Shown piece after piece: positions 3,351-3,690 of a stretch of 13,507 nucleotides of DNA. The stretch is taken from positions 1-13,507 of IMG/VR virus record IMGVR_UViG_2526164630_000014; one strand, 5' to 3'. Within the stretch, counting starts at the first letter, position 1. Every line of letters begins with the position of its first letter. The position numbers and the translations under genes are program-made. The notes under the pieces were generated by a model. The model saw nothing but the letters and a program-made list of their open reading frames with translations, did no database searches and was not told the origin of the DNA. The DNA comes from a virus (lineage: Duplodnaviria > Heunggongvirae > Uroviricota > Caudoviricetes).

Positions 3351-3378
3351 CAAAAATGAAGGCCGACTATGCGGCCTT
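3351..3378 (-). terminator. Putative intrinsic terminator at the 3' end of the 107-aa gene
   Basis: 7-bp stem AAGGCCG / CGGCCUU (3359..3365 and 3372..3378) with the TAG stop in the loop, followed on the minus strand by CAUUUUUG. Confidence 0.4.
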
Positions 3379-3690
3379 ATCTACATTTCTGAACCAAACG
3401 CAGATCGGACCGTCTTCTGTATCGTGAATCGAACTGACAAACCATCCTTCTCCATCTGGCATGCTTGGCTCCCATCCACTGATGTTTGGATTCCCATCTT
3501 CAAAATACGCGTCAATTACCGTTTGATTGTTGTCGTTTTCCATTTCAACAATTGATGATTCAATGCCATGCTGCTTGCAGAAAGATCTGAACTCATCAGC
3601 TGAAATTGCCTCTCTATCCCCAAACAGGTTGGCGTATTCTGGGTGCGTCCAGTAGCCATCCTCGCTTCGCTCTACTACTAATGCTTCCAT
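3367..3690 (-). CDS. Hypothetical acidic 107-aa protein (accessory gene immediately downstream of N)
   Basis: ORF with good SD (GAGGTGA) 5 nt before the ATG; about 23 Asp/Glu versus about 6 Lys/Arg; occupies the ral/sieB accessory slot. No family recognised. Confidence 0.65.
   Translation of the reverse strand: MEALVVERSEDGYWTHPEYANLFGDREAISADEFRSFCKQHGIESSIVEMENDNNQTVIDAYFEDGNPNISGWEPSMPDGEGWFVSSIHDTEDGPICVWFRNVDKAA

Follow-up and report, generated by a model that had tools for sequence, protein, structure and literature searches.

The window analysed here, a stretch of 13,507 nucleotides, represents the early region of a lambdoid prophage. Its minus strand carries, in this order, exo, bet, gam, kil, cIII, ea10, the open reading frame (ORF) of a 107-aa protein and N. 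Past N lie the genes for an NYN protein, a DUF3024 protein and the repressor, followed by the rightward operon. The gene for the 107-aa acidic protein (3367..3690, minus strand) was recognized from its ORF and translation and is a member of PHROG 1372. Its product contains 10 Asp and 13 Glu residues versus 2 Lys and 4 Arg residues, so that the estimate of about 23 acidic and about 6 basic residues in the initial annotation was exact. The predicted pI is 4.09 and the net charge approximately -17, or about -0.16 per residue. The strong ribosome-binding site (RBS) reported there is also present. A Shine-Dalgarno sequence, GAGGTGAT, was read at 3693..3700 (minus strand); it matches the anti-Shine-Dalgarno complement over 8 nt and is located 2 nt from the ATG. 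The surrounding RBS context, GCAGCAAACCACTTATTTGAGGTGATAT, is kept in six of six copies compared.

The protein is 98-99% identical to gp45 of mEp213, and the gene occurs with the same degree of identity in 41 of 5426 complete E. coli genomes. In a comparison of the near-identical E. coli copies the ORF was intact in the window and in every copy, and the dN/dS analysis encountered only five variable codons. An exhaustive HMMER search among 1.84 billion cluster representatives recovered 751 relatives with a threshold of E ≤ 0.001, of which 247 passed E ≤ 1e-10; at the 50% identity level, the family accordingly comprises at least 751 clusters. Because of these near-identical copies and the size of the family, the ORF 3367..3690 is a real and highly conserved gene.

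The cassette downstream of N and its lambda backbone

The antiterminator gene N (3749..4132, minus strand; 127 aa; PF25694 N_peptide, E 1e-15; phrog_271) is the upstream gene in the same PL operon. The 58-nt spacer between N and the ORF (3691..3748, minus strand) forms the 5' part of the cassette described below. No terminator-like site was detected in this spacer, whose fold (z -0.9) includes a hairpin without a U-run, and no promoter-like site was found ahead of the 107-aa gene. On the 3' side, site detection and folding located a terminator-like hairpin with a T-run at the junction to the lambda backbone (3349..3378, minus strand) and, within the backbone and upstream of ea10, a second terminator-like hairpin with a T6 run (3203..3234, minus strand). 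Folding revealed a perfect 14-bp hairpin between these two sites (3289..3328, minus strand), likewise in the lambda backbone. The next gene downstream, ea10 (DUF2528; 2818..3186, minus strand; PF10800, E 2e-47), lies within the lambda-aligned stretch.

The first hairpin, AAGGCCG-CATAGT-CGGCCTT (3378..3359), has a G+C-rich stem of 7 bp and is followed by CATTTTTGG. As initially annotated, its loop holds the TAG stop codon of the gene. The hairpin has a folding energy of -16.7 kcal/mol (z -3.3 versus shuffled controls) and is kept in all copies compared; lambda has a weaker, bulged version of it after ral. The second hairpin (3234..3213; z -2.5 versus shuffled controls) has the same sequence in lambda. 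The 14-bp hairpin (3328..3289), located in an 81-nt segment of -31.3 kcal/mol (z -5.0), is identical in lambda downstream of ral and could act as a processing site or as a terminator. The T-run, the 14-bp hairpin and the second terminator are all part of the lambda backbone, and we take the terminator-like sites downstream of the 107-aa gene to be the tL2-region terminators of lambda. The second terminator ahead of ea10 had thus been placed correctly. The description of the gene as bracketed by two terminators is incorrect, as both hairpins are situated 3' of the gene and none between N and the ORF.

Window positions 279..3370 align with lambda 31001..34087 at 97.4% identity. Since the ral stop codon supplies the final homologous base, with similarity returning at lambda 35710, the 107-aa gene stands in for lambda ral, orf28 and sieB, with the stop codon as the junction. 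The replacement of the ral/sieB segment proposed in the initial annotation is in agreement with this alignment. At the other border, two contigs (L007 and L010) whose N belongs to another family (PF11438 versus PF25694) have the same sequence starting directly behind the N stop codon. Taken together, the end of the homology at the ral stop and the sharing from the N stop with contigs of different N define an exact cassette of approximately 400 nt, composed of spacer, RBS, ORF and hairpin and bounded by stop codons on both sides. The N gene was present one or two genes upstream in 14 of 14 loci, counted among the sampled loci that carry the 107-aa subtype and include upstream sequence. These 14 loci comprise at least two N families (PF25694 and PF11438) and differ in their repressors or immunity and in their recombination modules.

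An RBS context of the form TTATTTGAGGTGA(T/G)ATATGGAAG (window 3688..3712) was found again before the next gene in other prophages, after the cassette in L007 (~5240..5270) and in L010. Such reuse suggests short linkers at which lambdoid cassettes recombine. The lambda cIII thermoregulator (RF01804; 2700..2758, minus strand; 88.5 bits) was the sole Rfam match in the window; tRNA genes were not found in it.

The slot behind N is accessory and varies in content. Among the 5426 complete E. coli genomes, ral occupies it in 875 and the 107-aa gene in 41, and in prophages with the same flanks an Nmad5 (nucleotide-modification) gene or an extra 156-aa gene is found there. Because no intrinsic terminator separates N from the ORF, the 107-aa gene is probably cotranscribed with N on the earliest PL message, before antitermination, with Rho-dependent termination between the two being possible. 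Its location in the PL operon and the lack of a promoter-like site of its own imply that it should be repressed in the lysogen.

A widespread family of acidic proteins

The 107-aa protein matches PHROG 1372 (E 2.3e-43; residues 1-106 versus profile positions 58-159) and also PHROG 20322. Both are without functional annotation. Searches of Pfam (E ≤ 1), NCBIfam and PADLOC returned no family; hence no known enzyme signature was detected, and the protein does not affiliate with any of the anti-phage defence families in PADLOC. The sole "hits" in a sequence-profile search of the PDB were Strep-tag sequences (WSHPQFEK), which resemble the family motif W-T-H-P. A literature search retrieved no paper or experiment on the family, and the protein is absent from the supplements of a large accessory-gene screen that included ral.

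The motifs conserved in the family comprise R8-D-x-x-G12-[YF]-W14-T-H16-P17, W37, E51/D53, S-x-W73-x-P-x-x-P-x-G-x-G-W83-F84, I88-H-D-T-E-D-G-P95 and W99-x-R101. Conservation reaches 96% for R8, 99% for H16, 100% for W73, 94% for W83 and 86% for R101. The conserved residues are mostly aromatic, Gly or Pro, and their role may be no more than to form the protein core; in addition, the acidic positions 51, 53, 90, 92 and 93 are nearly fixed across the family. In a set of 184 family domains with identities of about 35-45%, the net charge was negative in every case (mean -14.7, sd 3.4), with pI values between 4.05 and 5.41. As the charge is always negative across these sequences, acidity is a selected property of the family. 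Plasmid copies are milder, with net charges of -7 to -12. The neighbouring ea10 is also acidic (pI 4.3), as are many early phage proteins.

Neither the phage nor the plasmid collections searched contained the family outside Proteobacteria. Among phages, tblastn identified 83 records, all from phages of Proteobacteria, with Burkholderia, Pseudomonas, Escherichia, Erwinia, Vibrio, Klebsiella, Pectobacterium, Yersinia and Ralstonia as hosts. Related loci were located with a degenerate DNA pattern for the motif IHDTEDGP. In lambdoid phages the family gene follows N. In Rac-like prophages it is preceded by the replication genes, the succession being YdaT, O-like, DnaC-like, DUF1627, DUF977, an 84-aa gene and then the family gene. 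In phiSTEC1575-Stx2k and PY54 it is surrounded by small early genes, with a 3'-5' exonuclease nearby. It adjoins ppp in the P1-like phage D6, and in Pectobacterium phage Ymer a single gene separates it from the end of the genome.

Within PLSDB, 2043 of 72,556 plasmid records (~2.8%) contained the family, a membership not captured by PHROG 1372 and 20322, which stem from a phage-only resource. Of these records 1765 are conjugative and 1498 derive from Klebsiella; most are IncF types. On IncF plasmids of Enterobacter, E. coli, Citrobacter and Kosakonia the family gene lies in an island between traW and traU and overlaps the start of traU. In pKpQIL-like IncFII(K) plasmids, finO is followed by PIN, a hypothetical gene, DUF2726 and the family gene, and then by a PLD nuclease and repA; the family gene overlaps the nuclease-like DUF2726 gene by 4 nt. 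Anti-restriction genes of plasmids are usually found in the leading region; both the traW-traU and the finO-repA positions are outside of it. The traW-traU islands of Enterobacter, E. coli and Kosakonia (L134 7649..8918, L135 6943..8927 and L138 2945..4938) contain several unannotated genes, and PADLOC gave no match for the scanned island genes other than the family member. AcrIE9, the most widespread plasmid anti-CRISPR in Klebsiella, has a plasmid distribution similar to that of the family and was considered as a candidate identity. It was discarded, having a different N-terminal sequence, binding DNA and being located near flmC.

Clustering of the neighbouring genes yielded no single recurrent partner, the largest cluster being an artefact of shared coiled-coil N-termini. 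A conserved two-gene module was rejected as well, for the 74-aa upstream gene of mEp213 and the 73-aa upstream gene of the plasmids are not homologous. The occurrence of the family gene alone in very different phage and plasmid contexts implies that the domain needs no dedicated partner gene to function.

Among the best 150 representatives, roughly half exceed the length of the domain. The commonest fusion partner, found in 14 of 83 extensions (P0016, P0103, P0152 and 11 others), is a helical domain that lacks annotation and carries the motif AERxRQ..GWT..HDD..GEL..AA.CY..WPW..WKP..R.LVKAGALILAEIERLDR. This helical domain also forms the C-terminus of many PHROGs without assigned function. An Rv2179c-like 3'-5' exonuclease is fused in three representatives and encoded as a separate gene two to four genes away in six loci; a Lar-type zinc ribbon is fused in two relatives and a Tad2-like domain in another two (P0047 and P0169). 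Other partners recognizable by Pfam are KTSC and a few single cases. The few fusions may reflect gene order and not function. One representative carries the domain twice in tandem, a hint that the domain may act as a dimer.

Predicted structure and comparison with characterized inhibitors

The structure prediction recommended in the initial annotation resulted in a confident AF2 model (pLDDT 93.4, pTM 0.83; 38 sequences in the alignment). The model is a compact single alpha/beta domain. It begins with a short strand, followed by three helices and a buried strand; a long loop, which is ordered (residues 64-82), then leads to the C-terminal beta-hairpin, the tip of which is formed by the D-T-E-D-G-P motif. 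A fold search of the PDB with this model gave no matching entry. Structural matches in BFVD were restricted to uncharacterised phage proteins (TM up to 0.76), which appear to be members of the same family. The confidently predicted fold without solved relatives, the size and breadth of the family and its abundance on conjugative plasmids are new findings.

The resemblance to Ocr (gp0.3) of phage T7 and to ArdA that gave rise to the anti-restriction proposal concerns general features. All are small, very acidic, borne by mobile elements and without partner gene, and the genes of Ocr and ArdA, as presumably also that of the 107-aa protein, are switched on first or nearly first upon entry. The Ocr dimer is elongated and all-helical and ArdA consists of three domains, unlike the compact alpha/beta model obtained here. 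The absence of sequence similarity stated in the initial annotation was borne out, with no Pfam match at E ≤ 1 and an hhalign probability of 0.3% between Ocr and the family. For ArdA and for ArdB-KlcA, the 107-aa protein had no match at the level of Pfam, NCBIfam, PDB profile or fold. In addition, the plasmid copies of the family are found outside the leading region, unlike ardA. The specific analogy to Ocr and ArdA holds for charge alone.

Lambda Ral offers a positional counterpart. The 107-aa gene occupies the exact position of ral, and both proteins end with K-A-A-stop in or next to the same hairpin. Ral, however, is a protein of 66 aa with four Cys and with ten basic versus eight acidic residues, whereas the 107-aa protein is strongly acidic. 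The hhalign probability between Ral and the family is 0.07%, and the 107-aa protein did not match Lar_restr_allev; within the family, the zinc ribbon of Lar is present only as fusion partner. In view of the missing PDB profile and fold matches and the low hhalign probabilities, the protein belongs neither to the Ocr, ArdA or Ral families nor to any structurally solved anti-defence family.

Ugi, AcrIIA4 and AcrIF2 are small acidic alpha/beta inhibitors that mimic DNA. They resemble the 107-aa protein in size (~85-110 aa), in combining alpha and beta elements, in charge density and in coming from phages. By composition (23 versus 6), the protein has the negative-charge density of the DNA-mimic class. 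Sponges of nucleotide signals (Tad2-like, PF11195, and others) had neither a Pfam nor a PDB fold match to it; Tad2-like sequence occurs only as the separate fused domain of P0047 and P0169.

Candidate functions and further features of the window

The initial annotation proposed an anti-restriction or anti-defence factor. The variable slot shared with ral, the conserved acidity, the apparent transcription with N as infection begins and the Lar and Tad2 fusions speak in favour of this role, and a relation to Ocr, ArdA or Ral did not withstand the comparison. DNA mimicry and anti-restriction activity are thus hypothetical, and the protein may plausibly counteract host defences. The evidence for a function in counter-defence or host takeover is circumstantial.

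Tentatively, we favour the view that the 107-aa protein acts on its own and inhibits, in a stoichiometric manner, a nucleic-acid-binding protein of the host that is probably a nuclease or a defence system. A self-contained, cytoplasmic, strongly acidic alpha/beta domain would be made from the first PL transcript alongside N. By stoichiometric binding it would then neutralise a host protein whose normal ligand is nucleic acid; a nuclease would be the likeliest target, or else some other defence or repair complex directed at DNA. Contact may occur through the negatively charged surface and the invariant acidic tip of the beta-hairpin, I-H-D-T-E-D-G-P. The assumption of an inhibitor is supported by the presence of the anti-restriction gene ral or of Nmad5 in the same slot elsewhere, by the acidity throughout the family, and by the compact, confidently predicted single domain that matches no known enzyme family. 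It is further supported by the N-linked cassette without an intervening terminator, by the occurrence of the gene alone in diverse phage and plasmid contexts, by the recurrence of family members next to or fused with nucleases and by the Lar-like and Tad2-like fusions. It is weakened by the lack of homology to characterised inhibitors, by the acidity of ea10 and many other early phage proteins, and by the plasmid homologues, which are only moderately acidic and, rather than in the leading region, are found within the tra operon or in the finO-repA interval.

A bolder version, doubtful though conceivable, regards the 107-aa protein as the founding member of a new-fold inhibitor domain that phages and conjugative plasmids use to disarm one conserved DNA-targeting system of Proteobacteria. 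The target would be a defence or repair nuclease or a nucleoid silencer, and lambdoid phages would deliver the inhibitor with N as their very first product. If an inhibitor of this kind is confirmed, the family would represent an unannotated counter-defence or host-takeover domain with a fold absent from solved structures, and a new scaffold among the protein inhibitors of DNA-binding machines. Its target would be a host barrier relevant to phages and plasmids alike. The family spans temperate phages of many Proteobacteria and ~2.8% of the catalogued plasmids, including the pKpQIL-type IncFII(K) plasmids that spread carbapenem resistance in Klebsiella. The lambdoid cassette provides a simple genetic system, and mEp213 plates on E. 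coli K-12.

A rather unlikely alternative is a general host-takeover factor that binds a housekeeping DNA- or RNA-binding protein (H-NS-type, RNA polymerase, RecA or SSB) and reprogrammes the cell to the benefit of any incoming or activated mobile element. Such a factor would agree with the occurrence of the family in early phage operons and in the tra operon or backbone of 2043 plasmids (1765 of them conjugative), with fixed plasmid locations such as that directly before traU, with the restriction to Proteobacteria in the collections searched and with the appearance of the gene alone in many contexts. TraR-like proteins, which are common to F-type tra operons and lambdoid phages, would be its analogue, but the family has no similarity to TraR/DksA or to any known binder of H-NS or RNA polymerase. 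Moreover, the hypervariable slot and the rarity of the gene in E. coli (41/5426) fit a dispensable arms-race gene better than a core function.

It is improbable that the protein is an immunity-type or regulatory partner of a nuclease encoded by the element itself, i.e. the DEDDh exonuclease of phages or DUF2726 or PLD of IncFII(K) plasmids. The fused and nearby Rv2179c-like exonucleases and, on pKpQIL-like plasmids, the 4-nt overlap with DUF2726 followed by the PLD nuclease point in this direction. However, these partners vary from case to case, the traW-traU islands have no nuclease, and none is adjacent in the window or in any post-N copy, where the neighbours are N and either ea10 or other small genes.

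Slightly less probable still is a sponge for a nucleotide-derived immune signal, comparable to Tad1, Tad2 and Acb2, with a pocket formed by Arg8, His16, Trp73 and Trp83. A small stand-alone early protein with invariant aromatic and Arg residues (the five positions conserved at 86-100% listed above) and with a Tad2-like domain fused in two relatives would suit this function. The conserved aromatics may nonetheless be core residues, no sequence or fold similarity to any solved sponge was found, and the strong net negative charge is unfavourable for anionic nucleotides. A hitch-hiking filler without significant function, its cassette being kept for junction sequences such as the terminator hairpin, would accord with the rarity in E. 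coli and with the several broken genes of the window (exo, gam and Lar-like), yet is very improbable given the intact ORF in the window and all copies, the at least 751 clusters at 50% identity, the invariant motifs and the confident fold.

Several further features of the window were recorded. Relative to lambda, exo (ORF 661..1308) is frameshifted near its C-terminus (~679), and gam is split at ~2213 into 2193..2393 and 2096..2365. Single-base insertions relative to lambda lie beside homopolymer runs at both positions and also at ~414 and ~2407. These insertions, which disrupt exo and gam, could mean that the prophage is decaying or that homopolymers were misread in sequencing. In the nin region, a frameshift likewise splits a Lar-type restriction-alleviation gene (12090..12333, plus strand), whose two Lar-like ORFs match positions 2-20 and 25-58 of the PF14354 profile. 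The slot of rexAB, between N and the repressor, contains the genes for the NYN-domain protein of 285 aa (4640..5497, minus strand) and for the DUF3024 protein (5646..5987, minus strand). The latter matches the PADLOC candidate PDC-S43 (E 7e-42), and the two genes are a possible prophage-encoded defence pair. A Toprim/AAA primase-helicase of 968 aa (8608..11514, plus strand) contains an intein with Hint and LAGLIDADG domains at approximately residues 379-634.
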